Shown one piece after another: positions 12,001 through 34,493 of a stretch of DNA of 64,000 nucleotides. Under the pieces are notes generated by a model that worked only from the letters and a program-made list of their open reading frames with translations, searched no databases and had not been told where the DNA came from. A program made the translations under genes and the position numbers. How positions within the stretch are numbered: position 1 is the first letter of the stretch; every line of letters begins with the position of its first letter. The DNA is from Candidatus Omnitrophota bacterium (GTDB lineage: Bacteria; Omnitrophota; Gorgyraeia; Duberdicusellales; Duberdicusellaceae). Location: positions 2,547 to 66,546 of the forward strand of contig JAFGCB010000029.1 of assembly GCA_016932855.1 (NCBI GenBank). The letters are read 5' to 3'.

Positions 12001-15000
12001 GTAGAATTTAAAATAGCCTGAGCCTGAAAAGTAATAAATAGAGTCGCCGTCACCAATATCGGGGTGATAATATATAGTTCCGTTTTGGCAGTAATAGGGC
12101 GAATTCGTAAGCGGCTGCCAGGTATCCAGGTCAGTGCGGTACGCGTAAAAAGAATTACTGTTTCTTCCTACTTTCCAGAAGACAGTATTTTCCGAAGAGA
12201 CATATCTTAAGCGGTTGCCCCGGGGCGATGAGGTGGTAACAGCATCCGGCAGCGCCTCTACTGAGGGCGGGTTATCTAAAGATGTTTCCCAGCTGTCAGT
12301 AGAGATAGTGTATCGCATGAATACCGAGCGGTTCCAGGAGCTTTCAGTATAATAAGGGTCATGTCCGGCAATAAGATAGATAATATCACCGCTAGAACTC
12401 ATCTGGGAGCCGTCAGTAAAGAGAACAGGTGTTGCTTCATTGGTTTCAGCATTGGATAGCTGAGTCCAGGTTCTGTTTACAATATCATAACGCCAGAGAT
12501 GATTAGTATAGCTTCCTTCAATAAGATAGATATAGTCGCCGCTTCCCGGGTAAGTTGCCCTTGTCCCGAAGCTCATGGAGAAAGGAGTATATATAGTGCC
12601 GGTAAATCTATCCTGCGATACTGAATATTTCCAGGCATGCCTTCCGAATATACCCGTAAATATATATACAGTATCACCGCCGGCATGAACCACGCTTCCG
12701 TAGCCAAATCTTGAGGAAGCATATTCTTCAAGCTTTTCTGTCCACTCATTTGTAGATATGGTATAGGTATGTAATTGATAGGAGTCTTCATTTAATAGAT
12801 AAACATTATTTCCTACCGCTTCTAAAGAAAGGCAATAGGTTGCTGCGACTAAGGGAGGTTGGGACAGCCATTCCCAGGTGCCTTCATTCGCGCCCTGGAA
12901 AGCGTAGCGCACGAAACAGCCGTTATTAGTATAGCCGTTAATAAAATATAGGTAATCCCCGCTTCCCGGGTATTTCATCTTTGCCGAATAGTAAAACGGT
13001 ACAGGCGTTTTTAAGGCAACCCCTGGACTTTCTTCGGTTATCCATTCGCCGGTTGAGATATTATATTTCCAGAAATCACTGCTGTTTCCCCGGGCGGCAT
13101 AGATGTAATCGCCAAAGCCGGGATAAGCCAGACAGCTTCCGTAATAGACAGTATCCGGAGCCATATTAAAGGCATTAAAATTCCAGCGGGTACTATTGGT
13201 GTGGCCGCTGGTAGCTCCGAAAGTAACAGTTATACCGTTATTTAAGTCCTGGGAAGCTCCGGTTATAGGGATATCCGTTGCCTGCCAGGTTGAGCCGTTA
13301 TCATCTGACCAGCGGAAGGTATCCGGTGTTCCTTCCGAGTCGATTTGAACCCGGTAGCGCATTAGATTTTCTTCACCGGTATAAGCCCCGCCGGTAGTCA
13401 TATCATCAAGGGCTGTTTGTGAAGAGAAGGTAAGCGGCCCGATAGTAGGATTAGCTACTTCTGACCAGGTATCAGTTGAAGGGTCATATTTCCAGAAGTC
13501 AGGAGATTGGTTTCCTCTAAATGCATATATATAATTTCCCACTGTAACTAAAGCTCCTCCCCAGTAGACTTCTGCCGGAGTATCTGATAAGGTTTCCCAG
13601 CTATTGGCTGAAGTATTATATCTGGCAAAATTAACGGCGGTTTCTCCTCTTGTGGCGTAGACATAGCCGTTAAGATAAGCAATATCCGCACCGTGGTAAA
13701 TACCAAATGGCGCATTTGCTAAATTTTCCCATTCGTTATTAGTAATTGAATATCTTTCAAGATAATTGTTACTTGAACCGCGCGTCCGGTATATGTAGTC
13801 TGTTCCGTCATAGGCTAAAGCTGCTCCCCGGTAATTGGTTGTCCTTTGTGGATGGGGAAGAAAGTTCCATTCTGAAGTGGAAGTATCAAAGGCTAACGAG
13901 CCTCCTGTGTAGTTACGCACAGATATGTATTTAAGCTCTGTTCCTGCTCCTCCGGGGTGGTAAAGGAATCCTCTTTGGGAATATATAGGTAATTTAGGCA
14001 GTTCTTCCCAGGTTTCACTGCTTATGGAATAACGGGAGAAGCGGCCGTATTCAGCGTATTGGATGCCGTATATATAATCTCCTGTTCCCGGGTAAAATAT
14101 ATCTGATATGCCGTGATCAGCGTTAGGCGGCTTAAAGAAATCCCAGCGCTGTTTAGTGATATGGTAAGCGCAGAAATTAGTAGAGTTATATCCCCTGTTT
14201 AAATATATGTAATTGCCTGTTCCCGGATATACTAAAGTTGACTGTCTGGTAGGAGTCCAGTTGGAGTAGATATTTTCTCTTGGGGTCCAAGTATCGGAGC
14301 CTATGTCATATTCGTAGAATAAGGCGCTGCTTCCTGCTGTGCAGAAGACTTTACTGGTAGTAGCAGTCAGGTTTCCGCCTCCTCGGACATAAGTCGGGAC
14401 ATTAGCCATTACTGTCCAGGTGTCTGCGCTTATTGAGTATCTCCAGAACCCTCTTCGGGAGCCGCCCTGAGTTACGAAAATATAGTCTTCATTCGGGCCT
14501 GCTCCCGGCCAGGCAAGGCTTGCTCCTGCGCCGGTTCCCCCCGGCATTTTAGCTAAGAATTCCCATTCCTGGGTATCCACCGAGAATCTGCCTAGAATAT
14601 CTTTATCCCAGACAGCGTATATATAGACTTTAGAGTCGGTGTGCACTACTCTTTCGTAGTCCGAATACCAGTCTAACGTGGGAACCTCATTAAGGGAAAC
14701 CCATTTTCCCAGGTTATCTACAAAAGGGTCTTCTAAGCCTCCTTGTAAGACTACCGAGGCGTCTTCTCCGGGGTTTCCTGAAATTTGGACGTTTTCAGTT
14801 GTCCCTCCCTGGTAGTCTTCATACACAGTATCTTTAATCGAGAACTGGTCAGAAGTTAGAAGAGCCTTTCCGAACTGGCCGGTTCCCGTGGCAATGACAT
14901 TATCGTCTTTAGCGGAGAACTCGTTCCAGTCGGTCTGGTCACCGGGATGGCTAGCAGTATTTGCGCTTGTTCCACCTGACCAGTCAGTCTGGACAAAGCT

Positions 15001-15102
15001 GTCAGCATAGGCCTTGCTTTCCGGTAGAAAGCCCAGGGGTCCTATTTGGCTAAAGATAAAGACCTCGATTAAAAGGATAATAAGAGTCTTTTTCCTATTC
15101 AT
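1..15102 (-). CDS. Giant secreted multidomain surface protein/adhesin, partial: the N-terminal >5,030 codons are in the window and the 3' end lies beyond position 1. Domains: signal peptide, Kelch-type beta-propeller repeats, 4x DUF2341-like modules, LamG/ConA-like domain, ~13 tandem Ig-like repeats, then a distinct C-terminal region.
   Basis: Start is ATG at 15102 (rc of cat at 15100-15102), preceded by AAGGAG (rc of 15111-15116) at 8 nt. N-terminus MNRKKTLIILLIEVFIFSQIGPLGFLPESKAYA is a signal peptide. Sampling the minus frame with codon first base congruent to 0 mod 3 at about 1020, 2040, 5040, 7020, 8400, 10020, 12000 and 14040 found no in-frame stops. Hand translations: YVYATRGETAVNFARYNTSANSWETL and YIYAFRGNQSPDFWKYDPSTDTW (Kelch-like blades, about 13.6 kb); SYRK...ADYSDLRF...IYMYYGN repeated 4x (DUF2341 signature, about 10.4-7.8 kb); YHIVATYDQEEGLVKIYSNG (LamG/Laminin_G_3 signature, about 6.0 kb); PNGGELWTVGDTENITWT... 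repeated with ~285-nt period (5.3-1.45 kb). All plus-strand ORFs listed in this span are short antisense artefacts. Confidence 0.8.
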   Translation of the reverse strand, partial: MNRKKTLIILLIEVFIFSQIGPLGFLPESKAYADSFVQTDWSGGTSANTASHPGDQTDWNEFSAKDDNVIATGTGQFGKALLTSDQFSIKDTVYEDYQGGTTENVQISGNPGEDASVVLQGGLEDPFVDNLGKWVSLNEVPTLDWYSDYERVVHTDSKVYIYAVWDKDILGRFSVDTQEWEFLAKMPGGTGAGASLAWPGAGPNEDYIFVTQGGSRRGFWRYSISADTWTVMANVPTYVRGGGNLTATTSKVFCTAGSSALFYEYDIGSDTWTPRENIYSNWTPTRQSTLVYPGTGNYIYLNRGYNSTNFCAYHITKQRWDFFKPPNADHGISDIFYPGTGDYIYGIQYAEYGRFSRYSISSETWEELPKLPIYSQRGFLYHPGGAGTELKYISVRNYTGGSLAFDTSTSEWNFLPHPQRTTNYRGAALAYDGTDYIYRTRGSSNNYLERYSITNNEWENLANAPFGIYHGADIAYLNGYVYATRGETAVNFARYNTSANSWETLSDTPAEVYWGGALVTVGNYIYAFRGNQSPDFWKYDPSTDTWSEVANPTIGPLTFSSQTALDDMTTGGAYTGEENLMRYRVQIDSEGTPDTFRWSDDNGSTWQATDIPITGASQDLNNGITVTFGATSGHTNSTRWNFNAFNMAPDTVYYGSCLAYPGFGDYIYAARGNSSDFWKYNISTGEWITEESPGVALKTPVPFYYSAKMKYPGSGDYLYFINGYTNNGCFVRYAFQGANEGTWEWLSQPPLVAATYCLSLEAVGNNVYLLNEDSYQLHTYTISTNEWTEKLEEYASSRFGYGSVVHAGGDTVYIFTGIFGRHAWKYSVSQDRFTGTIYTPFSMSFGTRATYPGSGDYIYLIEGSYTNHLWRYDIVNRTWTQLSNAETNEATPVLFTDGSQMSSSGDIIYLIAGHDPYYTESSWNRSVFMRYTISTDSWETSLDNPPSVEALPDAVTTSSPRGNRLRYVSSENTVFWKVGRNSNSFYAYRTDLDTWQPLTNSPYYCQNGTIYYHPDIGDGDSIYYFSGSGYFKFYRYDISEDAWYELSNPPFGHYTSPYDSDMFYPGTGDFIYLTDGYNQLFARYSISQDTWDLEVGFPYVHCHTIHYSSFCEGADGNTLYSGAYHTFYRYNLTDRTWTSLTSPWNSAPNWRWDNYGAQLIYPGQGSHLYATRGRNTSNFVRYSIPANEWDVLNTPSQPFGNGHQLVSTAQRIYALRGGNTTDFWSYNPVSGSWSTATATPAATNWGASLCYPGSGDYIYATRGNGTGAFWRYSLSSSQWEALASVPALLGGNSYMASSLVYPGAGDFIYLSQGSSYEYSCPTGTVFRYSMSQNTWEALDELCPQQFDGLSRIVYPGTGDYLYALHGDYKENISKFLVFKKGSFTSTVKEVGRNQGFDIVDWNSNVAASSFELRARTSGSESMADAQDWDDIEIRHKGDDLTLSYPAIVDGQAYIQYQLRFFADDINNLPELQDIDLNYTKYPAKQTLISSPYDTSTTANRITGLSWSETQPGGSDIRFQLRTAADEASLASASWVGPGGTQGFTHDFSLDTDYAYATSIEVASGVGRLKKLYQGFDYTQRIIFDNTSGANSYTNFVATIEIDSSNKDFWEHVKSDGSDVRFSDGQGNSLGYNIHDQGATFDYAAQYARIYIKIPFMPAGEETTIYLKYGNAAAVSESDAEVFPLYADFAGTTIDSDKFEFGGGNISQDEYLSLRNDTADGWDTYLITTEVFARENNLSFIAQFKADLGTRVMVGWHDAGSGASYTDLIYCLYFNNGELRVYEDGGNRGSVGSYTPGEWYDIKITLKNPGATYYYRLSGETEWIELYNSVYSSESPLKVGISHNDRDEMSHTDNWSIGFIDDFTGGGGTGSDIPYYFTLYEEHTTSPSLSGWEYHLDIEIDNTSGIELTNYPAKIELTPSHEGFWKRCRSDGYDIRFVDSDNITILDYTRTAFSYAAKTGTLYVEVPLIPEEQTKKIYLYYGKSDASNTSNYDNTLYKDFDETGFNVSGLLLDGVDDRAAVSSATSLDATSSITLEAQVKADIDYWPEGFSYRKKLTINNSAGPAYSYMTVEFTVPYQGEMNADYSDLRFWNAEHSQKLRYKINSSNPTEAEIWLVIPEIPANANKEIYMYYGNSSASSESDNTISEYEFNVDFSGTVIDSNKFLYGGGTVSQNEFISFNNDNTGWDCYLITKDTFNRAADKYFQFKFKTDSSATAMVGLHDSGTAAGYWDLVYCLYFTGNNIYIYEDGTSRGGVGSYTPGEWYDCKIVLKNQGAIYYYKLASSPTWIQAYDSSYSSETHLRGAVSHYSMNYQTHTDDWVILRTTISPSVNFGSQETETSTLKWLPGFSYRKIITLDNTGGSKYTNILGQFDVSFESGKMNADYSDLRFLDTDGTRLDHRITESSPTEATILVKIPVFPQNSTKKILMYYGNPNATFESESALSAYDGGIIQATGTNINVSLIGFTNPRVFASEQLPSDTYRSGGTATQNPFITNVSSSGFDLKLIESPSAGDDLIIPQNVAYLIFEEGIHTIGNMTVEVGTLEISGSGYQTVYTTTYFTSPPVVLAATQTDNNSLPMFTRVRNVGNNSFQVQIETTEDSNPTIANAETVAYAVISVETDTEAKIEAYRSGDEVDENFDRFNFSFTRNDVGVVAHMQSEDAGDPGYAIVRNTTSQDVEVAIEEPSPFDGTRGNETIGWVAFSPNTGVSFPTNFATEENQPAINDTIIGKSGAYELKFNEQGLSGLINGSNVISVLDAYQFGQLMHIAFTYDGANAKIFVDGLEKESVESIGTINTNSNNLIIGQGIKGFIDEARVWNMANSQALINEYKQRYLTGNESGLVCYLPFNENSGTDALDLTSNNNDAILENGAGWIDNPLSYTNGASSALYHMDEGGGFSSADSSGNNNHITLSGLNWDLEDLTGFPSGNSLEFDGVTSYAYRVDSPSLDTTKRISIEAWIKPSDNVSTQTLVVKGNDAAPRYNYRLLQDGNNISFIFYNGEEYNFTPSSGFISAGNTYHIVATYDQEEGLVKIYSNGQLRYSSECTVNMLPNDDNLQIGKEISGAFAYYGLIDDVRIYRRALSPEEILHHYQHRSHYVNAPLELNIYEVEGTQDIAAYAVNNPVIQPVFGVFYENSRIADFQEIANIPHNTGIKYQISADGYRWYWWDGDSWEEVELGYDNANLAATVNSNISSFQDLYPSGDFYYRVYLHTEPGTFMTPSLDNIMVTLLTGETFYIDPSGSISINSLHSDASSDRWVQYKAILYSDGEETPLLDDITIEYIEARIDITYPNGGEDLNVGQDVEVTWTSQGIDGATGLVKIEYSADGGSIYQTVEENVDDDGSYTWEIPDDPAQNALIKISSEDFPTVSDTSNDTFRILSLEVTSPNGGEIWEEGKTHNILWSAPGSIPGNVVKIDFSTDGGGNWTSIVNPTPNDSEHPWGIPSDTESETVLVQISNSNNPEITDTSDAVFHIVPTPEITITSPQGGEEWTLGTEHAISWEANQLQFSDEVILEYSKDNFASDVHTIAQVSIGTPQGANPNDDIVGSHPWNLPDDPSATVRVRIREVDIPVGRDTQFTVSKISEEFSIMEPSIAITSPVSSTETIWVVGDTNDITWETEGNVSDNLYIEYSTDDGQNWNEIATGEDNDATYSWNIPAQASENNVLVKISDLDRPSVSDTKTVKILSEPEITVTYPNGGETFTIGTFETITWISYGNILESGGADYNKINIYYSDDNGQNWVLAAYNIANSKSHSWEVADAETTQALIKVEDENNTSYSDTSDAIFSISIPTITIEFPNGGEAFYATGSYDITWSTVGAVSDNLTLQYSTNGGGSWTDIDAGVDDTGSYTWLSVTDSITSNALIRMIDADRPSVIDVSDAPFSIIEPTITVTTPNGGEEWAEGTVHEVSWTSMGYDFGAIRDNLTLQYSSNGGSNWTDISTGEANDGYYTWTIPGAISTDCYVQIFDATRQATQDETDEAFSITLPFVEVLKPNGGESWIIGTTHQIEWRTVGAVSDDLQIEYSKDNFSTSDIIFDGVIAQPNYEWTIPDDFSATVKVRITDNTESLITDDSDAVFSIVNPVLTVTAPNGGELWTVGDTENITWTNTGSVGDDLLIEYSKDNFASNIITIAANLTPNNGNHPWQLPIDPTATARVRITDNTRPAVWDKSNAGFTILPIPQLQILTPNGSEVWRVGSEEDITWSDNGGLVSNNLTLEYSTNAGSDWTEIATGVSNGGLYAWGIPDQVSASCLVRITDASRPSNTDESDDIFQIADPLITITSPDSSTVWAVDDRASIIWTTEGTVSDNLVLQYSPDGGANYYTAISADTGLEAIGVPNSGSFNWLVADYITSNAKFKIIDGNRPATVGLSSGVFKIIAIPRFVITSPAGGESYVLENTLNITWTCEGLDISDNLLIESSNNNFVSSQVIISGEANDGNYSWSIPQNSLTGSTMKVRITDGSRTEVTGASPGYFTIKGGFELITPNGAEIWVAKSAHTVTWQTRGNIDSAKLEYTLDDGLNWNLISASVDANLNSYTWTLPDIVSDTVKLRISNAVDFNASIPDTSENDFRIVYVPVHFKVLDFDTMSHLDDLEVTEPATSWHDTGLISPDNLIREIPGYAYATYTTFFSKTNYIDNSVTWSPPKEYVGIITPYVITCYLENTASAQVSWEAILTYSFAPATDTLAAVGSLQRKGKLVGTRPEERESMGAATLTIYEPDGETVRNTLTAFQPNDSGFYTFTLANTTFAAGYVYPATLSIFYRDQSYTSSANIDVGSEILQYEFFTQTATKLASSVEQIKDAVAIGLGQTKQDIENDIASSAASIKSHTSSILSTVEESLTQTVEEAKDVAETAMKSEILNRENTVKSGEELVIRYRTYSGLVPSIDLYDAENAQQIVKGTMAEIGTTGIYEYLVKFDTKWGRGDFTIVCSEAIKGTLDALIMTVISSDIDSIAGQVASIMGTTSSLDDFKGVAETMTAQFAVVESALASISRDIVNQVTSAVESTTNLDSVYSQLVNMSKDIRSIGATQDINLEKLYEVN
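1450..5300 (-). repeat. Coding tandem array of ~13 Ig-like/Kre9-KNH-like domains (~95 aa, ~285 nt each) inside the giant gene.
   Basis: Repeated translations such as ITYPNGGEDLNVGQDVEVTWT, VTAPNGGELWTVGDTENITWT and ELITPNGAEIWVAKSAHTVTWQT. Antisense plus-strand ORFs occur with 285-288-nt spacing (2414, 2702, 2987). Confidence 0.7.
7780..10480 (-). repeat. Four diverged tandem DUF2341-like modules (internal duplication of a ~450-900-nt coding unit) inside the giant gene.
   Basis: Nucleotide-level similarity between 8290-8460 and 9650-9850 (gtcataccattc(a/t)ccgggagtataa...). YYGN-type motifs (rc atgtattacgg / atgtactacgg) sit at about 7821, 8718, 9165 and 10097, each preceded by ADYSDLRF(L/W). 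Confidence 0.65.
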
Positions 15103-15107: not shown

Positions 15108-15146
15108 CCGCTCCTTTTTATTTACCGCTGCTGTTACCGGCAGCGG
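15108..15146 (-). promoter_or_regulatory. 5' leader of the giant gene: a 7-bp stem hairpin (ccgctgc-tgttaccg-gcagcgg) 20 nt upstream of the AAGGAG RBS.
   Basis: Perfect inverted repeat at 15125-15131 / 15140-15146. RBS is the rc of 15111-15116. Confidence 0.4.
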
Positions 15147-15234
15147 CAAGAATATAAATCCTTTATTACTTAAAAGATATACCTTAATAAGTTCCCAAAG
15201 TCTCTCGTTCTGTAATAAAACGTTAATAATTTTT

Positions 15235-15267
15235 GCGTACTGCTTACCGCGTACTGCGTACTGAGAG
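15235..15267. repeat. Three direct GCGTACTG repeats immediately 3' of the HUH-domain gene.
   Basis: gcgtactgcttaccgcgtactgcgtactg lies 5-37 nt after the stop at 15272-15274. Confidence 0.5.
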
Positions 15268-15271: not shown

Positions 15272-16252
15272 TCATTTGCCTAATTTGCCCTCCAGTTCCT
15301 TTACTTTCTGTTTTTCCGCTTCCAGCCTTTTGGACATAGCCTCATATGAGACCATATTAGCCCGGTATAATTCGTCCAAGCCCCGCTTTATTCTTTCTTT
15401 TTCGGTTGTTAATTTTTTACTGTATTCTTTTTCCTGTTTTTGAGAAAGGTCGGTAAACTCGCCTTTTAAGTGGCGGTTTGTCCCCATAAGGGCTATATTT
15501 ACCAGGCCCAGTATTGCAATAGCCAGAGTCCCGGCCAGCACGAACTTTTTATTTACTTCCGGAGAAAGTAACTGGGGCTTTTGTTTAGACTCGGCTATTT
15601 TTCTTTTTATCTTGTCTTTAAAAGCATCGCTTCCCAGCAGCCTGGCGCTCTTTATTTTCTTGACCAGATTATCGAACTCTTTCTGAGGAGGGTTTTCAAA
15701 GAATTGCTTGTAGTCTTGAGCCGGTGAAATTTCGCTAAGAGCAATTTCTACTTCCTTAATTTCCTCGTTTATGTCAGGTTCATTAAAGCCTTCGTTTTCA
15801 AGGCTTTCATCCTTTAAGTATAGGGGAAGGCTTGTGTATTTGTAGTCTTTCGCCTCAGAGCTTAAGCCCAGGTGATAGGGGTTGCGGTGAATATAGGCAG
15901 TCATATAGGCCAAGTAAGATTTCTTCTCTACCAGAACCATCCGGAAGCGTTCCTGCAGGAGGTGGCCGCCTCTGTTATAGCGGCTGTTAAAGTATTTGAT
16001 GTAGGTGTTGTTTATATCGTGCATAATATCGGATATAGTTACCCCGCTGGTTAGCTCGATTAAAAGGTGAAGGTGGTTGCAGAGAAGGCTAAAGGAAAAC
16101 AATTTAAACCCGTATTGCTCCTTATATTTTTTCAAGAGCCCGATATAGGTTTTAAAGTCTTCTTTGTCCTTAAAGATAGTCTGGTTATTGTCTCCCCGGG
16201 TTGTTATGTAATAGAGTTCTTCTTCAACATGAATACGCGGCAGTCTAGGCAT
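15272..16252 (-). CDS. IS200/IS605-TnpA- or RAYT-like HUH-Y1 domain protein (N-terminal ~165 aa) fused to a linker, a TM helix and a C-terminal coiled coil.
   Basis: RIHVEEELYYITTRG...LLCNHLHLLIE (HxH motif)...AYIHRNPYH (catalytic Tyr motif) matches the Y1 transposase / COG1943 fold. TM helix is FVLAGTLAIAILGLVNIALMG. The tail KERIKRGLDELYRANMVSYEAMSKRLEAEKQKVKELE is paralogous to the tail of the 16745..17137 product. Start revised to ATG 16252 with GGAGGA just upstream. The ORF-track TTG start at 16312 overlaps an intrinsic terminator. Confidence 0.7.
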   Translation of the reverse strand: MPRLPRIHVEEELYYITTRGDNNQTIFKDKEDFKTYIGLLKKYKEQYGFKLFSFSLLCNHLHLLIELTSGVTISDIMHDINNTYIKYFNSRYNRGGHLLQERFRMVLVEKKSYLAYMTAYIHRNPYHLGLSSEAKDYKYTSLPLYLKDESLENEGFNEPDINEEIKEVEIALSEISPAQDYKQFFENPPQKEFDNLVKKIKSARLLGSDAFKDKIKRKIAESKQKPQLLSPEVNKKFVLAGTLAIAILGLVNIALMGTNRHLKGEFTDLSQKQEKEYSKKLTTEKERIKRGLDELYRANMVSYEAMSKRLEAEKQKVKELEGKLGK

Positions 16253-16310
16253 ACTTCCTCCTTGGCTTGGCCTCGCAGCAGGAGCGTGCGTGGCACTTTT
16301 TGGAATTTTC

Positions 16311-16341
16311 AAAAAAAAATCCCAGGATGCTGTTTCCTGGG
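16311..16341 (-). terminator. Rho-independent terminator on the minus strand (7-bp stem CCCAGGA/TCCTGGG followed by T9).
   Basis: Minus-strand reading is tttatttCCCAGGAaacagcaTCCTGGGattttttttt. It lies between the 16745..17137 gene and the HUH gene start. Confidence 0.6.
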
Positions 16342-16657
16342 AAATAAATACATTTTAGAATTTTCGGTAGCTTGACCATCCTTATCCTTTCAAGGACTCA
16401 CAGCTTTGCGCCCCCCGGTTACCCGGGGTTTGCCCTTTCGAATCCTACCTTTTTGTCACAATTAAAGTCTACACTTATTACTTTTATATTTCAAGGGTGC
16501 GTGGCACTTTCTATCAAATCAACCTATTTAAAAAGTATTATAAATAAAGAACTTTTGGGTGGGTCTAAAAAAAAAGGCGAAAAAAGCGGCAAAAAAACAA
16601 AAAATATTCTCAAAACCGGCTTTTTGTAGATTCCAAGGTAAATGCTTTAAACAAACC

Positions 16658-16727
16658 TACGAATTTACTAATCTTTACGAATATACGAATGGGCTATTCG
16701 TAAAAAATTCGTAATGCAGATTCGTAA
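16658..16727. promoter_or_regulatory. Nested inverted-repeat array: TACGAAT x3 followed by ATTCGTAA x3.
   Basis: cctacgaatttactaatctttacgaatatacgaatgggctattcgtaaaaaattcgtaatgcagattcgtaatg, with core TACGAATgggctATTCGTA. Lies 18-87 nt 3' of the 16745..17137 stop and ~400 nt 5' of the HUH gene start. Confidence 0.55.
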
Positions 16728-16744
16728 TGATTAGTAGCTGGGGT

Positions 16745-17137
16745 CTAGGATCCGTTATTCAGTTCTTCCTGGAGTTCTTGTTTTCTCTTCTTTTCCTGCT
16801 CAAGCCGGTCAGCCATGCTTTCATAGGAGCGCATGCTTTCGTTGTACACGGCTTCGAGCCCTTCTTTTATTATTTCTTTTTCCCGGTAAAGTCTTTTATT
16901 GAATGCCTCTTTTTTAATTTCCGAGAGGCTGTTAATGGATTTTTTTAAGGAGAGGTTGCTTAAGATAAGATATACGGTAAGTGCGGCAAGCAAAACAACC
17001 CCTATTAATAAGCCGATGATTTTTGACAAGATTTTTTTAGTTTTATTTTCCAGCCGTTGATAGAAGCGGCTAGAATTTATCAATTGGTTTATAGCTGTAG
17101 TAGAGAAGCTCTGAGTCGTCTTTTGTTTCAAAGACAT
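16745..17137 (-). CDS. Small bitopic membrane protein with a C-terminal coiled coil, paralogous to the tail of the HUH fusion protein.
   Basis: TM helix IIGLLIGVVLLAALTVYLIL. KEIIKEGLEAVYNESMRSYESMADRLEQEKKRKQELQEEL aligns with the HUH protein's C-terminus. Confidence 0.6.
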   Translation of the reverse strand: MSLKQKTTQSFSTTAINQLINSSRFYQRLENKTKKILSKIIGLLIGVVLLAALTVYLILSNLSLKKSINSLSEIKKEAFNKRLYREKEIIKEGLEAVYNESMRSYESMADRLEQEKKRKQELQEELNNGS

Positions 17138-17250
17138 TGAATCCTGCCGTTAAGCACTTTTTATATATTTCAAGAGTTTGGGGATTGGGCTTGAGCCTTG
17201 GAATGCTGGATTTTTCAATATTGTCTTTCTCCACTTTTTGTTTTCCTTTC

Positions 17251-17964
17251 CTAGTAAGTTAGTTCTTTTATTAAGGCTTTAACTTCGTTACTGTCTTCGG
17301 CCTGAGGCTTAAGCTCAAGGTACTTTTCGTAATGAAGCGCGGCTTTTTCAGAATTTTCCTCGTAGTCTTGATATAAAAGGCCTAAATTATAATGAGCTTC
17401 GGGATTATCAGGGTTAGCCTCAAGCGACTTTTCGTAAGCTTCAATGGCCTGGGCGTAGAATTCAGCTTCTGTATAGGCTACGCCTAGGTTGTATTGATAA
17501 AGGGCTCTTTCCTGGAGAATTTTCTGTTTTAAGTTCTTAATTTCATTTTCCAGGGATTCTTTTTCTTTTAATGCATTACCCTTTTGAACGGGGCCGGTCA
17601 GGCCAAGGCGCTCTTTGGTTTCGTATTGTCTTAACTTATCGTTTAAGGCTTTTATTTCACTGTTTTTTTTCCTAATAAGAGCTTCTTTTTCAGTAAGCTT
17701 GCTTTGAAGATTTTCTTGAGTGGTTTGAAGCTTGGTAGTAAGCCCGAGGTATGATGTTGAGTCCGCTTCAAGGCGTTCTTTTTCTTTTACCGCTTTTCCT
17801 TTTTCAAGACTAAGAAGCTCTATCTGTTGCTTGAGATTTTCGACTAAATCATTGTTTTGTGCAAGTCTTTTTTGGGAATTGGCGGCTTTTGAGGAGATAA
17901 AAATTACTATAATAAGAAGGGTAAAGGCAATGGCAGACGGGATAATAACTTTTAGCTCTTTCAT
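17251..17964 (-). CDS. Membrane-anchored coiled-coil protein with C-terminal TPR repeats (MshN/PilF-like secretin-associated TPR protein?).
   Basis: N-terminal TM helix, long heptad-rich region, then TPR-like [37 protein letters not shown]. Confidence 0.55.
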
Positions 17965-17980
17965 TTTAAAACTTAGGGAT

Positions 17981-19276
17981 TTAATGGGAGAGCATATCTA
18001 TCAGATATTCTATTTCTTGTTTATCCTTTACGCTGTCGGTAAGCTTAAGGGATTTACGGAAATGTTTAAGAGCTTCTTTGTTGTTGTTTTGAGAATGTTG
18101 GTATAAAAGGCCGAGATTATAATGTATCTTGGAATTTTCCGGATCGGTCTCCAGGGATTTATTAAACGATTCTATTGCCAGGCCAAAGAGTTTTGCCTGG
18201 GTATAAATTGTACCCAGTTCTTCATAGAGGCGGGAGCGTTCCTTTTTAAAAGTATTCTCAAGCGCGGCGACTTTTCTTTTAAGATGTTCATTTTCTTTGA
18301 TAAGTTTTTGGCTTTCTCTCGCCAGCTTAAAAGCCTCCTTCTGTAGTTTGTTTATTTGTTTTTGTTCCTGCCCGGAAGAGGCTGGCTTGCTATCGGTTTT
18401 CCGGTTTTCTTTAATTTGCTTGTTTTTTTCTGCAAGAACTGCTTTATCCCGGGTTAAATTATCGATTTTTTCTTCGAGGATCTTTACTTGTTCCTTGTAT
18501 TGTTCAGATTCTTTAAGTTTACTTTCAAGGGCTCTTTCCCGGTCTTCAAGAGCTTTTAATTCGCCCGAAAAATCACCTTCTTGAAGGGCGCTTATAAGAG
18601 TCAGGTTTTGTTCTTCCAGGGTTTGAATTTTTTCTTTAAGGCTTGTATTTTCAGCGCCAAGGTTTTCTTTTAATCTTTTTACCGTTTCTTCATATTCTTT
18701 AAGCTTTTCTAACTGAGCCTTTGAAGATTCACCTTTATCTTCCAGCCGGGCTTTAACATTTAAGGCCTGCTTCAGCTCTTCTTTTAACTCCAGGTTTTTT
18801 TGGCTTAAGGTTTCTATGCGCTGCTGGTAAGACAGCTCTTTCTTGCTGTCCTGAGCATTTTTTTCTTTGAGGGTCTTTTCAAAAAGGCCGACCTCTTTTT
18901 TTAAGAGTTGGTTTTCTTTAGAGAACCGGGCGTGCTCTTCAATGATATTTTCCAGCTTTTTCTCTAAGGCGGCTGCCTTTTCTTCCCGGGCTTCCACCAC
19001 GGCTAATCTAGTTTCAAGAAGGCCTTGCTTTTCTTTGATAGCCTCTAATTTTTTTTCCGATTCAGCTTTGAGCAATTGAACGCTTTGCAGCTGCTGTTTT
19101 AATTCAGCGCTTTGCTGTTTTAATTTATTAATGTCGATTTCACCCAGTATTTTATCTATGGTGTCGGATAATTCTTTTGCTTCGGTTTCGGCATTTTCAG
19201 CCCAAGCTTTAGACCCCGGGTCTATAGACAAGCAAGCAGCGAATATAAATACAAAAATTAAAATTTTGTTTTTCAT
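17981..19276 (-). CDS. Secreted coiled-coil + TPR protein, paralog of 17251..17964.
   Basis: Signal peptide [26 protein letters not shown], ~330 aa of coiled coil, then C-terminal [42 protein letters not shown]. Confidence 0.55.
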
Positions 19277-19278
19277 GT

Positions 19279-21171
19279 TTAGTATTCCTTTATTCCCTTC
19301 ATTTTATCGGATATACTTGCCGGTTTTTTAGAGCTTTTAGGTTCATTTTTGTTCTCGTCGCAAGTTCCTAAGGGTGACAGATTTTTCGGGGTTACTCTAA
19401 TTTGTTCTATCTTTTTAGATATTATCGATTCTTGCAGGTCATCAGGCATGATATCCGCGGGTATGTGATCCTGGATTTCGGCATGCTTGACCGGAACATC
19501 GCCCTTTATAATGTGGGGTTTAAGAAATATCACTATTTCGGTTTGATTGTTTTTTTTAGCCTGGGAGCCGAAAACCGCTCCTAAAATCGGTATACGCCTT
19601 AAGAAAGGTATGCCTTTTTCGTCATCTTCACGGGAGTCCTTTATGAGTCCGGCAATCATTATCATTGTATTATCTTTTACTTTTACGACAGTTTCTGCTT
19701 CGGAAGTCTCGATGATAGGTATGCGGCTTCCCAGGGAGGTTTCTAATTCATCTATAACCGAGCTTACCTCAGGTTTTATCTTCATAGTAACAAAGCCGTC
19801 TTTGCCTATGGTGGGCACAACATTTAATTTTACTCCTACGTCCACGAATTCAATCGATTCCGAAGTAACCGTGGTAGTTTCGGCCTGGCTTAAGCTTTGG
19901 GTTACATAAGCGTCGCGTATGCCTACCAGTATTTTAGCCTCTTCATTATTTACTACGGCGATGCGGGGACGCGAGAGAATCTTTGTATTGCCGTAGCTTT
20001 CAAGCATGTCTAGAGTAGCGTCAAAATCATCAGCATCAAGCGTACCTACAGTCATTGCGAAATTCTCCGTGGTATAATTAGGCGGTGCGTCTATGGGGCT
20101 AAAAGCTGAGGTTAAATCTAGGCCGTGCATGTATGCGTTTTGGAATACCCGTTCCCAGTCTATGCCTTGATGATATTCGTCTTTAAGGCTTATCTGGATA
20201 ATCTCAGCTTCAATAAAGACCTGGCGGTTCTCCTCGTCTAAGGCTTCGACAATCTTTTTTATCTTCTTCATTTTCTTGGGTAAATCAGAAACCAATACCT
20301 TACCTGAACGCTCGTCGATAAGAAGTTCGCCTGGCCCTGTGGTTATAGCTTCGGAAAGATGGGTTTTTAGGTCTTCTGTTTTAGCATAATTGATATCAAA
20401 TACTTCGGTTTGTAAGGGCTTATCTAAATCGTTAGTTACCTTTTCCATGAGCTCGATTTTGTCCGGTATATCAATGAGAATGATAGTCCCTGAGGCTTCA
20501 TCGACAATAATTTTTCCTATACTTGATTTAAGCTCTGATAAGGCTTTAAACACCGAAGCAGGTTCTGCGTATGACAGGTTAATGCTTTTGATTTCTCTTT
20601 TTTCATTATATTTTTTCCCGTAAAGAGTTTCGTATTCCGCGGCGGTCATTACGCTTATAATCTCGTTTTTCTTTTCGCAAGCCAGCTGCTGGCTTACCAG
20701 GATGACGTCAAGGGCGTCTTCAAAGGTTATGTTGTTTAAGAATATATTTACTCTTCCGGTGATCTTTCTTGAGGGTACAATAGTCAGGTTCATCTTCAAG
20801 GAGAGAATTCTGAAGAGTTCGATAATATCAACCCCTTTTAAATCTAAAGAAATTCTTTCTTCAGCTATTTTTACGCCCTGGTTTACTTCTTCTTCTGACA
20901 GGGGGTGTGTTGCCCCTATATCGGATATTTCTTCGTCTTGGTAGAGGTCTTCCAAGGGTGGCTCTGGTATGGGCATATCGCCTTCAGCAGCATCGATTCC
21001 CTGCAAGATTGCCTGCTCTTCAGGCGGGATAGTCTGTATAGGTTCGGGGGGATTTTCGTCTTGAGAAAAAACACATAGGGTGGTTGTTCCGAAGACCAGA
21101 GCTATTCCGCAGACCATAATCAATGTTTTAATAAACACAAGGACATTCTGGCGGTTCATTCTATGGTCCAT
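19279..21171 (-). CDS. Secretin (PilQ/GspD/MshL family outer-membrane channel).
   Basis: C-terminal secretin signature ...KGIPFLRRIPILGAVFGSQAKKNNQTEIVIFLKPHII, N-terminal N0/N1-like domains, N-terminal signal/TM. Overlaps the upstream gene by 16 nt. Confidence 0.85.
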   Translation of the reverse strand: MDHRMNRQNVLVFIKTLIMVCGIALVFGTTTLCVFSQDENPPEPIQTIPPEEQAILQGIDAAEGDMPIPEPPLEDLYQDEEISDIGATHPLSEEEVNQGVKIAEERISLDLKGVDIIELFRILSLKMNLTIVPSRKITGRVNIFLNNITFEDALDVILVSQQLACEKKNEIISVMTAAEYETLYGKKYNEKREIKSINLSYAEPASVFKALSELKSSIGKIIVDEASGTIILIDIPDKIELMEKVTNDLDKPLQTEVFDINYAKTEDLKTHLSEAITTGPGELLIDERSGKVLVSDLPKKMKKIKKIVEALDEENRQVFIEAEIIQISLKDEYHQGIDWERVFQNAYMHGLDLTSAFSPIDAPPNYTTENFAMTVGTLDADDFDATLDMLESYGNTKILSRPRIAVVNNEEAKILVGIRDAYVTQSLSQAETTTVTSESIEFVDVGVKLNVVPTIGKDGFVTMKIKPEVSSVIDELETSLGSRIPIIETSEAETVVKVKDNTMIMIAGLIKDSREDDEKGIPFLRRIPILGAVFGSQAKKNNQTEIVIFLKPHIIKGDVPVKHAEIQDHIPADIMPDDLQESIISKKIEQIRVTPKNLSPLGTCDENKNEPKSSKKPASISDKMKGIKEY

Positions 21172-21770
21172 TCCATCCCTTCTCTTTCAATAAGGACCTG
21201 GTTTCTTAAGACTTTTTTTACCTTAAAGCCTTCGATTGTCTCGCCTGCGCCTAAAAGATGAGTTTTGCCGCTTTTGGTGTATTCAATCATTGCCTGAGGG
21301 TTATCCGACCAGATTACGCCCACAAGCTTTAAGCTTTTAATCGTTTCCGAGGTATCAAGGCTTATCTTTTTCTCCGGGGCCGCAGGGATAAAGGTAAATA
21401 TATTTCTTTTTCTGGCTTGAGCTTGAATTTCGTTTATATTAGTTTCCAGAGATATTTTTTTTGTTTGATCTACTGCCGCAATAGCGGAGTTTTCCTGGAT
21501 TTGGGCGAAGCGGTCTTCGAGATCAGAGCTTATCTTCATAAAATCGAAAACAGCCAAGATTGTAAAAGCTACGCATAAGCCGAGAAGTATTCTATTTACC
21601 GTCTCCAGTTTAAGGGATTTAAAAGCATTTTTAAGACCTTCTAATGAGCCGCTAAGTCCTGCAAACAAAGATACCTTTCCTTTAGTTACCGCAGAGGGGC
21701 TTCGTTTGGCAACCGTAGGGTCTTCCAGGATTTTTAGTAATTTTTCTTCAGGGGTGCTTTTATCTTTCAT
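21156..21770 (-). CDS. Bitopic inner-membrane protein, GspB/ExeB- or PilP/GspC-like secretin-assembly partner (tentative).
   Basis: Cytoplasmic N-terminus, single TM (ILLGLCVAFTILAVFDF), periplasmic beta-rich C-terminus. Sits between the ExeA-like ATPase and the secretin. Confidence 0.4.
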   Translation of the reverse strand: MKDKSTPEEKLLKILEDPTVAKRSPSAVTKGKVSLFAGLSGSLEGLKNAFKSLKLETVNRILLGLCVAFTILAVFDFMKISSDLEDRFAQIQENSAIAAVDQTKKISLETNINEIQAQARKRNIFTFIPAAPEKKISLDTSETIKSLKLVGVIWSDNPQAMIEYTKSGKTHLLGAGETIEGFKVKKVLRNQVLIEREGMEWTIE

Positions 21771-21772
21771 GT

Positions 21773-22615
21773 CTAAATAATTTGCGACTGGGAAATCTTT
21801 ACTTCCTGGGAAATTAACTCCCGGATTATATCCACGGTAACTGCGGGCTTATTGTGCATAATAAGTTCTTTTAATCCGCTGTGGCAAATCATGGCTATTC
21901 TTCGGGGATAGCCTTGGGTATAGTGATAAATCTCTCTAATCGCATCATCGGTAAAAAGGCCGGGCCCGGAAAGGTAACCCGCGGTTTTTAGCCTGAATTC
22001 TATCATCGCTCTTGTTCCCTGCAGGTCAAGAGGGTTTATCACGTACTTTAAGCTTAGACGGTCCATAAGGTTTTTAATTTCCCGTATTCTGGGAAGAAGC
22101 TCCATTTGGGAAAGAAGCACAAGTTGCAGCAGTTTGTATTCATTGGTTTCGTAATTTAAGAGGACCCGCAGGATTTCTAAAGAAAGAGAGTTTAGTTTTT
22201 GGGCTTCGTCGATTAATAATACTATTGTCTTTTTTTCTTCGACGCCGGTTCTGAAAAGGTAGTCTTTTATCGCTTCTTTAAAGTCCAGTATGTTAGGATT
22301 GGGTTTTTGAAGCGTTATCTTAAAGGTCCTGATTAGAGAATCTAAAAACAGCTCTTCCGTTTCAAAGGTAGGGTCGAGAATCATGTGAAAGATAATATCA
22401 TCCCTTTCTTTAAGCATACGGAAAAGCTTCCGGGAAAGCGTGGTCTTTCCGGTTCCCACATCTCCCAGTATAAGACTTAATCCTCTTTTAAGGCGGATTT
22501 CTATCATGAGCCTCATCAAGGCCGCGTGGTGTTCCTTGGAGTCGTAGAAAAATTCCGGGTCAGGACTTGTTGAAAAGGGCTCTTTGTCCAGGCCCAAGAG
22601 TTTATAGTAGCTCAT
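21773..22615 (-). CDS. ExeA/GspA/MshM-family AAA+ ATPase (AAA_22).
   Basis: LLGLDKEPFSTSPDPEFFYDSKEHHAALMRLMIEI...LILGDVGTGKTTLSRKL matches the GspA/ExeA N-terminal region and Walker A. Walker B is LLIDEAQ. Confidence 0.8.
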   Translation of the reverse strand: MSYYKLLGLDKEPFSTSPDPEFFYDSKEHHAALMRLMIEIRLKRGLSLILGDVGTGKTTLSRKLFRMLKERDDIIFHMILDPTFETEELFLDSLIRTFKITLQKPNPNILDFKEAIKDYLFRTGVEEKKTIVLLIDEAQKLNSLSLEILRVLLNYETNEYKLLQLVLLSQMELLPRIREIKNLMDRLSLKYVINPLDLQGTRAMIEFRLKTAGYLSGPGLFTDDAIREIYHYTQGYPRRIAMICHSGLKELIMHNKPAVTVDIIRELISQEVKISQSQII

Positions 22616-22617
22616 AT

Positions 22618-22884
22618 TCAGTCTCCTATTTGACCGGAGAGTATCTTGCGTATAAGCCTTAGGGTGTAACCCTCTTTTTTAAGATCATTAATCCTGTCTA
22701 ATGTTAGGCGCAGCTGGCGCTCTTCGTAGAGGCGTTTATTCCCTTTTTTATCTACAACCGGAAGAAGCCCCAGGTTTGTGTAATAATTTAGAGTCTGGTA
22801 GGAGATATTGTACTTTCTGACAATATCCGTAGTTGAAATTAGCTTGTTCATTAGTTTATTTACCCAAATACGCTTTGCCGGCAT
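22618..22884 (-). CDS. Short MerR-superfamily HTH DNA-binding protein (88 aa, no effector domain).
   Basis: ISTTDIVRKYNISYQTLNYYTNLGLLPV..KGNKRLYEERQLRLTLDRI is MerR-type HTH. 3-nt gap to the downstream ATPase gene. Confidence 0.65.
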   Translation of the reverse strand: MPAKRIWVNKLMNKLISTTDIVRKYNISYQTLNYYTNLGLLPVVDKKGNKRLYEERQLRLTLDRINDLKKEGYTLRLIRKILSGQIGD

Positions 22885-22904
22885 TGAGGTGTTTAAGTTG
22901 TTCT

Positions 22905-22940
22905 ATAACACTTATAGTACAAACTATAAGTGTTGTCAAG
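22905..22940 (-). promoter_or_regulatory. Promoter with an embedded perfect 11-bp inverted-repeat operator upstream of the MerR-like gene.
   Basis: Minus strand: TTGACA (rc of 22934-22939), 17-nt spacer, TATAAG (rc of 22911-22916). Palindrome ACACTTATAGT-acaa-ACTATAAGTGT (22908-22933) overlaps the spacer and -10. Confidence 0.6.
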
Positions 22941-23048
22941 TACATTTTGCTGTTTTTGTTTATTTTGTTTGGGTCCGGACCGGAATAGACAAAGAGGTTT
23001 TGGTTTTGAGACAGGTTGCCCCGGGTTTACAGGCAAGATTCAAGGCAT

Positions 23049-23630
23049 CTAATCGTTTATTTCTTTTCCGTTTTCATAAACCCGCGTGTCGGTAAGCTTA
23101 CCGTCTTTATTGTAGAATTTCCATTCACCGTGGGGCTGGCTTTCTTTGAAGTATCTTTCCGAGCTCAACTCGCCGTTTTCGTAGTAGCTTCTCCACTTGC
23201 CGTTGGCTTGCCCTTTTTCATGTTCTTGTTCAGCGGCTAATTTGCCGCTCTGGTAATATCTTTTTATTACTCCGCATTGAAGGCCGTTTTTGTAGGGTAT
23301 TTCCCACTGCAGGCAGCCGTTTTCATAGTAAATTTTGGCTGTCCCGCATCTTTTATTATCTTCGTAGGATTCCTCTATTTTTAACTGCCCGTTTTTATAG
23401 TAGCATTTTCGCGTTCCCCAGAGAGCATTGTTTTTATAGGATGTTTTCGAGAAGAGTTTTCCATCGTCATAATAATATTTGCATACGCCGTGTTTTTCTC
23501 CGTCTTTGTACGGGGTTTCGCATTTAAGTGTTCCGCCGGGGTAATATTCCTTTTTTATTTCAATGTCCGCCAGGCAAGCCCTGACAGGGAAGCTTAAAAA
23601 TATCAATATAAGTATGGAGGGGCGAAGCAT
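23049..23630 (-). CDS. Secreted MORN-repeat (MORN_2/YwqK-like) protein.
   Basis: Signal peptide, then repeated Y(Y/K)xNGxLxxExxYKNG units. Confidence 0.65.
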   Translation of the reverse strand: MLRPSILILIFLSFPVRACLADIEIKKEYYPGGTLKCETPYKDGEKHGVCKYYYDDGKLFSKTSYKNNALWGTRKCYYKNGQLKIEESYEDNKRCGTAKIYYENGCLQWEIPYKNGLQCGVIKRYYQSGKLAAEQEHEKGQANGKWRSYYENGELSSERYFKESQPHGEWKFYNKDGKLTDTRVYENGKEIND

Positions 23631-34448: not shown

Positions 34449-34493
34449 ACCGGATTTACCACAGGAAAAAAGGTAGATCCGGTCTTTTTTTTT
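34449..34493 (+). terminator. Strong stem-loop (12-bp stem with one G.U wobble, loop ACAGGAAAAAA) followed by T9, in a divergent intergenic region.
   Basis: accggatttacc-acaggaaaaaa-ggtagatccggt-cttttttttt. A near-identical hairpin with the same loop recurs at 35839-35874. Confidence 0.55.

Follow-up and report, generated by a model that had tools for sequence, protein, structure and literature searches.

A c-di-GMP-I-class riboswitch heads an operon for a RAYT-like membrane protein and a giant protein beside a secretin module in Omnitrophota

Introduction

Why would a bacterium of the phylum Omnitrophota carry an operon for a secretin, apparently without the pilins or inner-membrane core of a type II secretion system (T2SS), beside the gene for a giant adhesin and a gene for a membrane-anchored, transposase-like protein with an HUH domain? 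Omnitrophota are abundant, mostly uncultured and ultra-small, presumed to be predators or epibionts, and their giant proteins are a recognised puzzle. The arrangement lies in a 64,000-nt stretch from a Candidatus Omnitrophota bacterium (assembly GCA_016932855.1, contig JAFGCB010000029.1, positions 2,547-66,546 of the forward strand), which was analysed as a whole and is called the window here. An earlier note on this DNA described eight co-directional genes as an accessory secretin module without a T2SS core, laid out like the MshM-MshL-MshN part of the mannose-sensitive haemagglutinin (MSHA) pilus cluster, with the giant adhesin as possible cargo, or else as a DNA-translocating secretin machine that uses the HUH protein.

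The region is part of a ~35-40 kb surface-display and secretion supercluster that occurs across Omnitrophota. The account we favour, and consider reasonably probable, treats the "orphan" secretin operon as one half of a T2SS, the outer-membrane one, which a riboswitch-gated giant operon, a peptidase and an ATP synthase have separated from the other; the giant protein would be exported through it, and the HUH protein would be an exapted accessory.

Results

Two transcription units

All eight open reading frames (ORFs) are present on the minus strand where the earlier note had placed them, and domain searches match the labels that it gave, apart from some refinements. The junctions also hold, with 2-nt spacers at 22615/22618, 21770/21773 and 19276/19279 and a 16-nt overlap at 21156/21171. 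The gaps preceding the later genes measure 16, 113, 492 and 169 nt. A promoter-like site, a riboswitch and a terminator, all overlooked before, fill the 492-nt gap, and the genes upstream of it appear to end in a hairpin; the HUH gene therefore heads a separate unit together with the giant gene. The eight genes thus divide between two transcription units: unit 1 spans 22884-16745 (minus strand), and in unit 2 the HUH gene is joined by the giant gene. Unit 1 comprises the following features.

22618-22884, minus strand: MerR-family HTH regulator, the leading gene (MerR_1, E=6e-11)
21773-22615, minus strand: GspA/ExeA/MshM-like AAA+ ATPase, 280 aa (AAA_22, E=3e-17)
21156-21770, minus strand: bitopic GspB/GspC-like protein, with a transmembrane (TM) segment at residues 61-79 and a periplasmic HR-type domain
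19279-21171, minus strand: secretin of the PilQ/GspD type (Secretin, E=8e-46, and two Secretin_N domains)
17981-19276, minus strand: periplasmic coiled-coil and TPR protein, MshN/PilW/Tgl-like, with a signal- or lipoprotein-like hydrophobic N-terminus, TPR families at residues 348-418 and weak PilW and Tgl matches
17251-17964, minus strand: second coiled-coil and TPR protein, with an N-terminal TM or signal segment (TM at 6-24), TPR_11 (E=7e-10) and weak Tgl and PilW matches
16745-17137, minus strand: small bitopic TM-coiled-coil (TM-CC) subunit, TM at 40-58
16650-16725, minus strand: AT-rich long hairpin of TTACGAAT and ATTCGTAA repeats, 3' of the TM-CC stop codon (dG -22.7 kcal/mol, z=-3.85, none of 200 shuffles equally stable)

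The AT-rich hairpin is probably the end of unit 1. Three TTACGAAT motifs followed by three ATTCGTA motifs (16650-16740, minus strand) together make it up, past the TM-CC stop. Unit 2 and its leader are laid out as follows.

16498-16508, minus strand: conserved box AGTGCCACGCA, copy 1, 2 nt 5' of the -35 hexamer
16466-16494, minus strand: sigma-70-like promoter TTGAAA-17-TAGACT, from a consensus scan only, just 5' of the aptamer
16359-16448, minus strand: c-di-GMP-I-class riboswitch aptamer, 90 nt (Rfam RF03167, 60.2 bits against a gathering cutoff of 59, E=1.5e-12)
16311-16342, minus strand: intrinsic terminator UCCCAGGA...UCCUGGGA followed by U9, 3' of the aptamer, the expression platform of the riboswitch
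16287-16297, minus strand: conserved box AGTGCCACGCA, copy 2, in the 5' untranslated region past the terminator
15272-16252 (ORF to 16312), minus strand: HUH-TM-coiled-coil protein, with a RAYT-like (REP-associated tyrosine transposase-like) HUH domain at 1-~135, a helical domain at ~140-224, a TM helix at 237-255 and a ~70-aa periplasmic coiled coil
15122-15149, minus strand: GC-rich 10-bp hairpin without a U-run, 8 nt 5' of the Shine-Dalgarno (SD) sequence of the giant gene
1-15102, minus strand: giant secreted protein, >5,030 aa in the window with the C-terminus beyond its edge, Sec-type signal peptide

The earlier note had placed the giant gene after two short terminator-containing gaps. 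In the 492-nt gap the terminator belongs to the riboswitch; the 169-nt gap holds the 10-bp hairpin, which without a U-run is non-canonical as a terminator. That hairpin is not kept in relatives, whose giant genes start 13-85 nt past the HUH stop or, as is frequent, overlap with it.

The riboswitch and the conserved box

For comparison, 58 loci (numbered with the prefix L) were fetched by exact look-ups and one scan of a genome collection with an 8-sequence alignment, and annotated by our own ORF calling and phmmer. Rfam matches reach gathering level in the window and in six of the seven loci tested, the relatives matching RF01051 (cyclic di-GMP, c-di-GMP, class I; Rfam clan CL00126) at 55-66 bits against a cutoff of 35. 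A covariance model of our own, built from seven aptamers and run on the fetched loci, scores the window aptamer at 94.8 bits and gives exactly one coding-strand match per locus in 50 loci. The aptamer lies ~30-430 nt (mostly 50-150 nt) 5' of the HUH gene in 49 of these; in the exception, L021, it stands directly 5' of the giant gene, with the HUH gene three genes upstream, and the riboswitch is therefore tied to the giant gene. The model found no match where the 5' flank ran off the contig, in L023, or in three Firmicutes-type or unassigned outliers that share the HUH domain only.

Across 48 distinct aptamer sequences, 97.5% of the cells in the alignment are paired and compensatory changes occur in 15 of 20 pairs, which none of 500 shuffles matched; slid controls give 31-46% pairing, and the alignment was fitted to the model and is hence biased in its favour. 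A true GGC-variant riboswitch was considered and rejected: the window and L011 carry GCAAAG, the canonical consensus, where the variant has GCGAAG, and the relatives score with RF01051. Because the window keeps the canonical motif, the ligand of its aptamer would be expected to be the canonical one, c-di-GMP.

The position of the promoter-like site fits a transcript start ~10 nt before the aptamer. A terminator hairpin followed by U7-9 lies roughly 5-25 nt 3' of the aptamer in all 35 other loci examined. We infer that c-di-GMP gates transcription of unit 2. The direction of the switch leans towards OFF (ligand-induced termination), since the terminator is complete in itself and stands apart from the aptamer, and since in several loci the 3' strand of the aptamer can pair with the 3' arm of the terminator; minimum-free-energy folds of four loci show this alternative pairing.

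The box AGTGCCACGCA occurs just twice in the 64 kb. Its consensus, AAA-GTGCCA(C/G)GCA-C, is near-palindromic, and ATGC..GCAT-like variants preserve the symmetry. The box is ~72-fold enriched near the riboswitch relative to the rest of the loci. One copy follows the terminator, at +47 to +73 nt from the aptamer end and always on the coding strand, in almost all loci (L001-L054), often 3-6 nt before the SD sequence of the HUH gene. The place of the second copy differs between clades: with ~320-aa HUH proteins it abuts the -35 hexamer, and with ~400-aa ones it is found 20-60 nt past the first copy. The GTGCCAGGCAC box was also considered as a sigma-54 promoter, which was rejected, there being no GC at the required spacing. 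We hypothesise that the box is a target of the HUH domain; another regulator is equally possible. Simple-sequence repeats stand between the box and the HUH start codon in L028 ((AGAC)~20, ~6100-6190) and L017 ((AATGACA)~4, ~9950-9990), and could drive phase variation.

A near-invariant trio with a frequent neighbour

Wherever an Omnitrophota-type locus extends far enough downstream, a giant ORF comes after the HUH gene, either adjoining it or separated from it by 1-4 small genes. The HUH-TM-CC homologues of these loci are 34-55% identical. A module consisting of an optional MerR gene, AAA22, GspB/C-like, secretin, one to three TPR and TM-CC genes stands directly 5' of the riboswitch in 28 of ~40 informative loci, those with enough upstream sequence (~70%), and it accompanies both the ~320-aa and the ~400-aa HUH forms. 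The riboswitch, HUH gene and giant gene are thus a near-invariant core, and the secretin module is a frequent neighbour with a breakable linkage. The earlier note had proposed comparing synteny in related genomes, and there the HUH and giant genes do accompany the secretin; this makes the giant protein a reasonable cargo or partner of the module. A metagenome scan with the secretin as reciprocal synteny query returned three short contigs only. In L003, two small PilZ-domain genes (379-1292) lie 5' of the secretin module.

The T2SS core beyond the giant gene

In the window, GspE, GspF and Zot-like ATPases are absent among ORFs of at least 150 aa and a scan for prepilin motifs found none anywhere in the 64 kb, so the earlier statement that these components are missing here was correct. 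Regions past the 3' end of the giant gene were reached through C-terminal fragments of giant homologues on five contigs (L062, L063, L064/L065, L066 and L068). All five have the same order: giant gene, Peptidase_MA_2 gene, F-ATP synthase operon, GspE with MshEN, GspF, PilM/N, pseudopilins and a GspK-like gene. A GspM-like protein and minor pseudopilins are also among the core genes of the relatives. The reading as an accessory secretin without a core is therefore not supported, since relatives have a T2SS inner-membrane and pseudopilus set past the far end of the giant gene.

In L065, the major pseudopilin matches GspG at 125.5 bits against an equivalog cutoff of 88.85, accompanied by N_methyl minor pilins and a weak GspK match. 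Its GspE-type ATPase carries the MshE c-di-GMP motif (61.7 against 38) and scores almost equally as PilB. GspE and GspF of the relatives fall below their equivalog cutoffs (565 against 630 and 325 against 424, respectively).

Two of the contigs, L065 and L066, whose flanks were covered to 10 kb, contain past the core a second, convergent module of AAA22, GspB/C-like, secretin, CC-TPR, TM-CC, TIGR04073 and TPR genes; its secretin is 49% and its AAA22 protein 62% identical to those of the window. In L068, housekeeping genes follow the core and there is no second secretin module. A single contig of the same lineage, L067, unites the upstream module with the HUH gene and a giant gene whose product has 4,525 aa. 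Taken together, L067 and L068 therefore leave the upstream module as the only secretin adjoining the core in that lineage. The earlier note had regarded a complete pilus or T2SS gene set nearby, with HUH and giant genes not syntenic in relatives, as fatal to its proposal; a core does lie nearby in relatives, but the HUH and giant genes are syntenic.

Several genes in and around the core are worth recording in their own right. A zincin-like Peptidase_MA_2 gene lies immediately 3' of the giant gene in all five contigs; its product is a candidate protease for processing or release of the giant C-terminal anchor. In L063, a response-regulator-GGDEF gene is found 3' of the giant gene. The F-type ATP synthase operon (epsilon, c, b/delta, alpha, gamma and beta; no a-subunit gene called) stands between the giant gene with Peptidase_MA_2 and the GspE-GspF core. 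The second secretin module includes a small "exosortase system-associated" protein, TIGR04073 (86.9 bits against 50), at 16459-16827 (minus strand) of L065 and 16169-16519 (minus strand) of L066. Since the best model for the AAA+ protein is a PEP-CTERM-associated ATPase, there may be some connection with exosortase-type sorting loci.

Proteins of unit 1

A MerR gene lies 5' of the AAA+ gene in many relatives, as it does here. The AAA+ ATPase has as its top NCBIfam match the ExeA-like "pepcterm_ATPase" TIGR03015 (167 bits, below the cutoff), and is 76% identical to its L003 orthologue and 62% to the copy in L066. The domain search found the ATPase part only and no peptidoglycan-binding domain in its 280 residues; without this C-terminal domain the protein is not a full GspA/ExeA form, and with its bitopic partner adjoining it resembles the short MshM type. 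The partner, the GspB/GspC-like protein, has a borderline T2SSC match in its C-terminal part (26.8 bits against a cutoff of 27), where there are also weak matches to three GspC NCBIfam models and to GspC of PDB 7oio.

The secretin has similar scores with the models for PilQ (222 against a cutoff of 284), the GspD equivalog (208 against 351) and MshL (190.6 against 250.2), each below the cutoff. Its nearest solved structures are PilQ (3jc8 and 6ve2), with GspD next. Homologues of the TM-CC protein, with a common RADMVSY motif, occur in L065 and L066 in secretin modules that have no adjoining HUH gene. The Msh-like logic of the earlier note is a fair description of unit 1, which combines a secretin, an MshM-like ATPase and MshN-like TPR proteins. 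By homology, unit 1 is best read as the outer-membrane and periplasmic half of a T2SS, with the secretin, a GspC/GspB-like connector, a GspA/MshM-like assembly ATPase, pilotin-like TPR and coiled-coil proteins, and TM-CC.

The RAYT-like HUH protein

The likely true start of the HUH protein is the ATG at 16252, giving 326 aa that are 100% identical to an NCBI entry (P0001) annotated "transposase". The match to Pfam Y1_Tnp (E=9e-13, 48.8 bits against a cutoff of 23) places it in that superfamily, and its scores are below the family cutoffs of REP_Tyr_transpos (67 against 80 bits) and transpos_IS200 (18 against 55). Because a PDB sequence search gave no match, a fold search was needed. The AlphaFold (AF2) model has a pLDDT of 92 and shows an HUH fold at residues 12-127, the helical domain and a single long helix at 235-325 that includes the TM segment. 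The top fold match is the E. coli REP-associated tyrosine transposase TnpA-REP (4er8), with a TM-score of 0.73 normalised to the target.

The window copy retains H60, H62 and Y120. Among 120 homologues, the catalytic triad is intact in 74 and degenerate in 46 (38%); in the long forms it is degenerate in 64% and intact in 36%. Residues G96, H97 and R102 are near-invariant across the same set, and 117 members keep the TM segment. The HUH-TM-CC family numbers 189 clusters at 50% identity (E<=1e-30), and its named members are all metagenome-assembled genomes of Omnitrophota or of the Planctomycetes-Verrucomicrobia-Chlamydiae (PVC) group. The gene is single-copy and syntenic at nearly all loci, L021 having a second HUH-like ORF on the opposite strand. 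A search for REP-like repeats found no dispersed palindromic family in the 64 kb; the repeats that turned up were coding ones within the giant gene and two intergenic duplicates of an unrelated kind, and the short GTGCCASGCA boxes were all that resembled associated elements. Right past the HUH stop codon stand three direct CAGTACGC repeats (15235-15265, minus strand).

The degenerate triad in 38% of homologues, the lack of REP-like repeats and the fixed place in an operon with the giant gene under the riboswitch make the HUH domain look exapted rather than mobile. The protein would most likely be a nucleic-acid-binding regulator or tether of its own operon and not a transposase. Its C-terminus is paralogous to the TM-CC protein of unit 1 (34% identity over 88 aa, E=1e-14). 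Because its tail has a paralogue in the secretin module, the HUH protein probably docks into a secretin-associated scaffold through the coiled coil.

The giant protein

The giant protein contains Kelch beta-propellers, four DUF2341 domains, two LamG domains and Ig-like repeats according to Pfam. An MshQ-like reading was rejected, as no NCBIfam family (MshQ, PilY1) matches and the Pfam domains are limited to these four kinds. Homologues encoded downstream of the HUH gene in relatives have 4,500-6,700 aa, and most of the N-termini examined share an F-x-Q-x-D-W-S/T-G-G motif past the signal peptide. The C-termini (P0121 and P0126 compared with P0122-P0130) are of two types, one ending in ...ANKPxTQTWYEYK after a ~150-aa helical region and the other running ~190 aa more to a TM helix and KKKK.

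Wider neighbourhood

Just 5' of the secretin operon lie genes for an exported MORN-repeat protein (23049-23630, minus strand) with a weak match to the LIC20035 adhesin family, and for a 963-aa autotransporter with a calcineurin-like phosphoesterase passenger (23926-26817, minus strand). Further away, an intergenic element of ~170 nt with a terminator-like hairpin is duplicated (34444-34612 and 35834-35996, 84-88% identical), its copies preceding the ORFs at 34617-35624 and 36003-36845. The genes at 41291-48216 (minus strand) encode a CHASE2-adenylate/guanylate cyclase, a beta-barrel, FecR, an ion-channel protein and a ShlB/FhaC-type POTRA transporter, a set that resembles signalling and two-partner-secretion genes. 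cNMP-binding SpoIIE phosphatases are encoded at 59965-62761.

Discussion

In the split T2SS proposed here, the level of c-di-GMP would gate read-through into the HUH-giant operon. The giant protein would be exported by Sec and then cross, or be displayed through, the outer membrane via the flanking T2SS and secretin, and its retention or release may depend on the C-terminal anchor or helical region and on the adjacent peptidase. The HUH protein, often non-catalytic and tethered to the inner membrane, would dock to the secretin machine via the coiled coil that it has in common with TM-CC, and may regulate or tether its own operon through nucleic acid binding, with the GTGCCASGCA boxes as candidate sites. 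A c-di-GMP wiring is also suggested by the PilZ genes and the GGDEF regulator that are found nearby in relatives.

This role of the HUH protein could be taken further. As a trans-envelope signalling or tethering device, the RAYT-like protein would have a transposase-derived domain at the inner membrane that binds single-stranded or hairpin nucleic acid, a ToxR-like topology and a periplasmic coiled coil plugged into the T2SS/secretin; by binding the GTGC-CAS-GCAC boxes around the riboswitch, in DNA or in the 5' untranslated region, it would couple expression of a >15-kb giant gene to the state of the machine, or tether the transcribing locus or its mRNA at the site of export, where the giant protein would then be synthesised. 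We offer this as a tentative idea and consider it fairly unlikely.

A number of observations weigh against a split T2SS that exports the giant protein. The core is seen in relatives and not in the window's own genome, which was read within the 64 kb. In some relatives, the second convergent secretin module leaves the assignment of secretins to functions ambiguous. The main caveat is that relatives also keep the ATP synthase operon within this cluster: conserved synteny in this phylum need not mean shared function, and by itself it is weak evidence. Twelve loci with at least 6 kb of upstream sequence (~30%) have glycosyltransferase, PIG-L and WbqC genes in place of the secretin module. In P0121, the closest C-terminal homologue of the giant protein, the last elements are a TM helix and KKKK, and such an anchor does not fit simple release by a T2SS. 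The test of co-variation between aptamer and terminator for the direction of the switch gave p=0.12 for cognate against non-cognate duplex energies, no significant difference. The window copy of the HUH protein retains an intact H-u-H motif and tyrosine, and its proposed role is an interpretation. As for the giant adhesin as cargo, the synteny and the shared coiled-coil domain speak for the earlier proposal, in which passage through this secretin is putative.

The conserved ATP synthase operon, the twelve loci with glycosyltransferase genes and the C-terminal TM anchor also speak for a coincidental neighbourhood, in which the secretin module serves a general T2SS or type IV pilus, the trio is, like the ATP synthase operon, an unrelated neighbour kept by slow rearrangement, and the giant protein reaches the surface otherwise or stays in the periplasm or inner membrane. 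We consider coincidence unlikely, given that the module has stayed next to the operon across HUH proteins of 34-55% identity, ~320-aa and ~400-aa forms alike, that the paralogous TM-coiled-coil of HUH protein and module is a link independent of gene order, and that in L067 and L068 a single T2SS has the giant gene between its halves.

The pilus-like traits of the machine raise a different possibility, in which the giant protein would serve as an adhesin on a pilus or pseudopilus, comparable to PilY1 or MshQ, or as an inner-membrane-anchored fibre that passes through the secretin, in an MSHA-like machine with a c-di-GMP-activated ATPase. The secretin is nearest to PilQ, the ATPase has the MshEN motif and an almost equal PilB score, PilM/N-type components are present, and the giant protein has beta-propellers and LamG domains, with a C-terminal TM anchor in a close homologue. 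Its signal is of the Sec and not the prepilin type, however, no MshQ or PilY1 family matches it, and the major pilin passes the GspG equivalog cutoff, so that we regard an adhesin or fibre of this kind as distinctly unlikely. That the HUH protein works as a RAYT- or relaxase-like enzyme, nicking single-stranded DNA, and feeds DNA to the secretin (the DNA-translocating machine of the earlier note) or rearranges the locus at the two boxes, is highly improbable: the window protein keeps its catalytic residues and has a RAYT fold, and in the ~320-aa clade two same-strand near-palindromic boxes flank the promoter-riboswitch cassette, but the triad is degenerate in more than a third of the family and in most long forms, the score is below the RAYT equivalog cutoff, REP-like repeats and extra copies are lacking, the gene is fixed in the riboswitch operon with the giant gene, and no ComEC/ComEA, coupling protein or relaxosome genes were found within the 64-kb window.

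The split T2SS shares with the known GspA/GspB (ExeA/ExeB) type the secretin, a bitopic connector with a borderline HR-domain match, an ExeA-like AAA+ ATPase beside the secretin and a Sec-exported candidate cargo, and, in relatives, GspE, GspF, GspG (above its cutoff), minor pseudopilins and GspK- and GspM-like proteins. In contrast to that type, the Omnitrophota cluster is split by the giant gene, the peptidase and the ATP synthase operon; its AAA+ protein lacks the peptidoglycan-binding domain, its secretin matches best as PilQ, a PilM/N-type protein takes the place of GspL, GspE has the MshEN c-di-GMP motif, and there are extra coiled-coil/TPR and TM-CC subunits. The Vibrio MSHA cluster (MshL, MshM, MshN, MshE) resembles it in the adjoining M-L-N-type trio and the MshEN motif of the extension ATPase. 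It differs in that the secretin here is below the MshL cutoff, the major pilin is of the GspG type and the gene order is interrupted; none of MshA, MshI, MshJ or MshK was identified.

Vibrio, Clostridioides and Geobacter are among the bacteria in which riboswitches of the c-di-GMP-I (GEMM-I) class act on genes for adhesins, pili or motility. The Omnitrophota element shares the aptamer class, the intrinsic terminator next to it and a surface-protein gene downstream; unlike those examples, its first gene encodes a transposase-derived membrane protein, the cargo gene exceeds 15 kb and a conserved box stands past the terminator. In Pseudomonas, the giant adhesin LapA is kept in an outer-membrane pore under c-di-GMP control, with export by a type I secretion system and post-translational control by LapD and LapG. 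The analogy is functional, extending to a giant repeat adhesin, c-di-GMP control, a nearby outer-membrane channel and an adjacent protease candidate (Peptidase_MA_2); there is no homology, and for Omnitrophota we propose export by Sec and T2SS/secretin with transcriptional control by a riboswitch. RAYT/TnpA-REP (4er8), of the IS200/IS605 Y1 HUH superfamily, has in common with the Omnitrophota protein the fold, a GHxxQxRF-type core and, in the window copy, the HUH motif with its tyrosine. The Omnitrophota protein differs in its fusion to a helical domain, TM helix and periplasmic coiled coil, in its sub-equivalog score and frequent loss of catalytic residues, and in its fixed riboswitch-operon position without REP arrays.

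T2SS-like loci (gspD/E/F-type) have been reported near much larger giant genes of Omnitrophota, whose products were proposed to be secreted adhesion or degradation factors (West-Roberts et al. 2023, bioRxiv 10.1101/2023.11.21.568195). That work and a second preprint, on 176 complete Omnitrophota genomes (10.64898/2026.06.07.730766), deal with proteins of >30,000 aa, which have SecA-like domains and numerous TM segments. The loci described here agree with the published ones in phylum, in gspD/E/F-type genes, in a Rotamase_2 peptidyl-prolyl isomerase near the giant gene (L066) and in PilZ nearby. The giant proteins are different, at ~5,000 aa and with a Sec signal and Kelch/DUF2341/LamG domains. 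Neither preprint mentions riboswitches or IS200, RAYT or HUH genes, and DUF2341 and Kelch go unmentioned in the 2023 text; its Tad-type (rcpC) locus was not seen in the stretches read here. What is new is the operon of riboswitch, RAYT-like gene and giant gene, and its place inside what we read as a split, c-di-GMP-wired T2SS; the kinds of component are known.

Members of the HUH family are annotated "transposase" or RayT and risk being counted as mobile DNA in the flanks of giant genes, where transposase genes have been counted in this way (10.64898/2026.06.07.730766); the evidence here indicates that they are non-mobile. They are a likely case of an HUH/RAYT domain exapted into a membrane-anchored accessory of a secretion system. 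Several parts are compact enough for in vitro study without culture, namely the 90-nt aptamer, the 11-nt box, the 230-aa soluble domain and the 88-aa coiled coil. For a class of ~5,000-aa surface proteins that recurs in ~50 loci of Omnitrophota (or PVC-labelled) genomes, our analysis suggests a wiring diagram in which a c-di-GMP riboswitch would decide whether the giant gene is read, the halves of a T2SS stand on both sides of it with an ATPase that has a c-di-GMP-binding motif, and a transposase-derived membrane protein is always present beside it.

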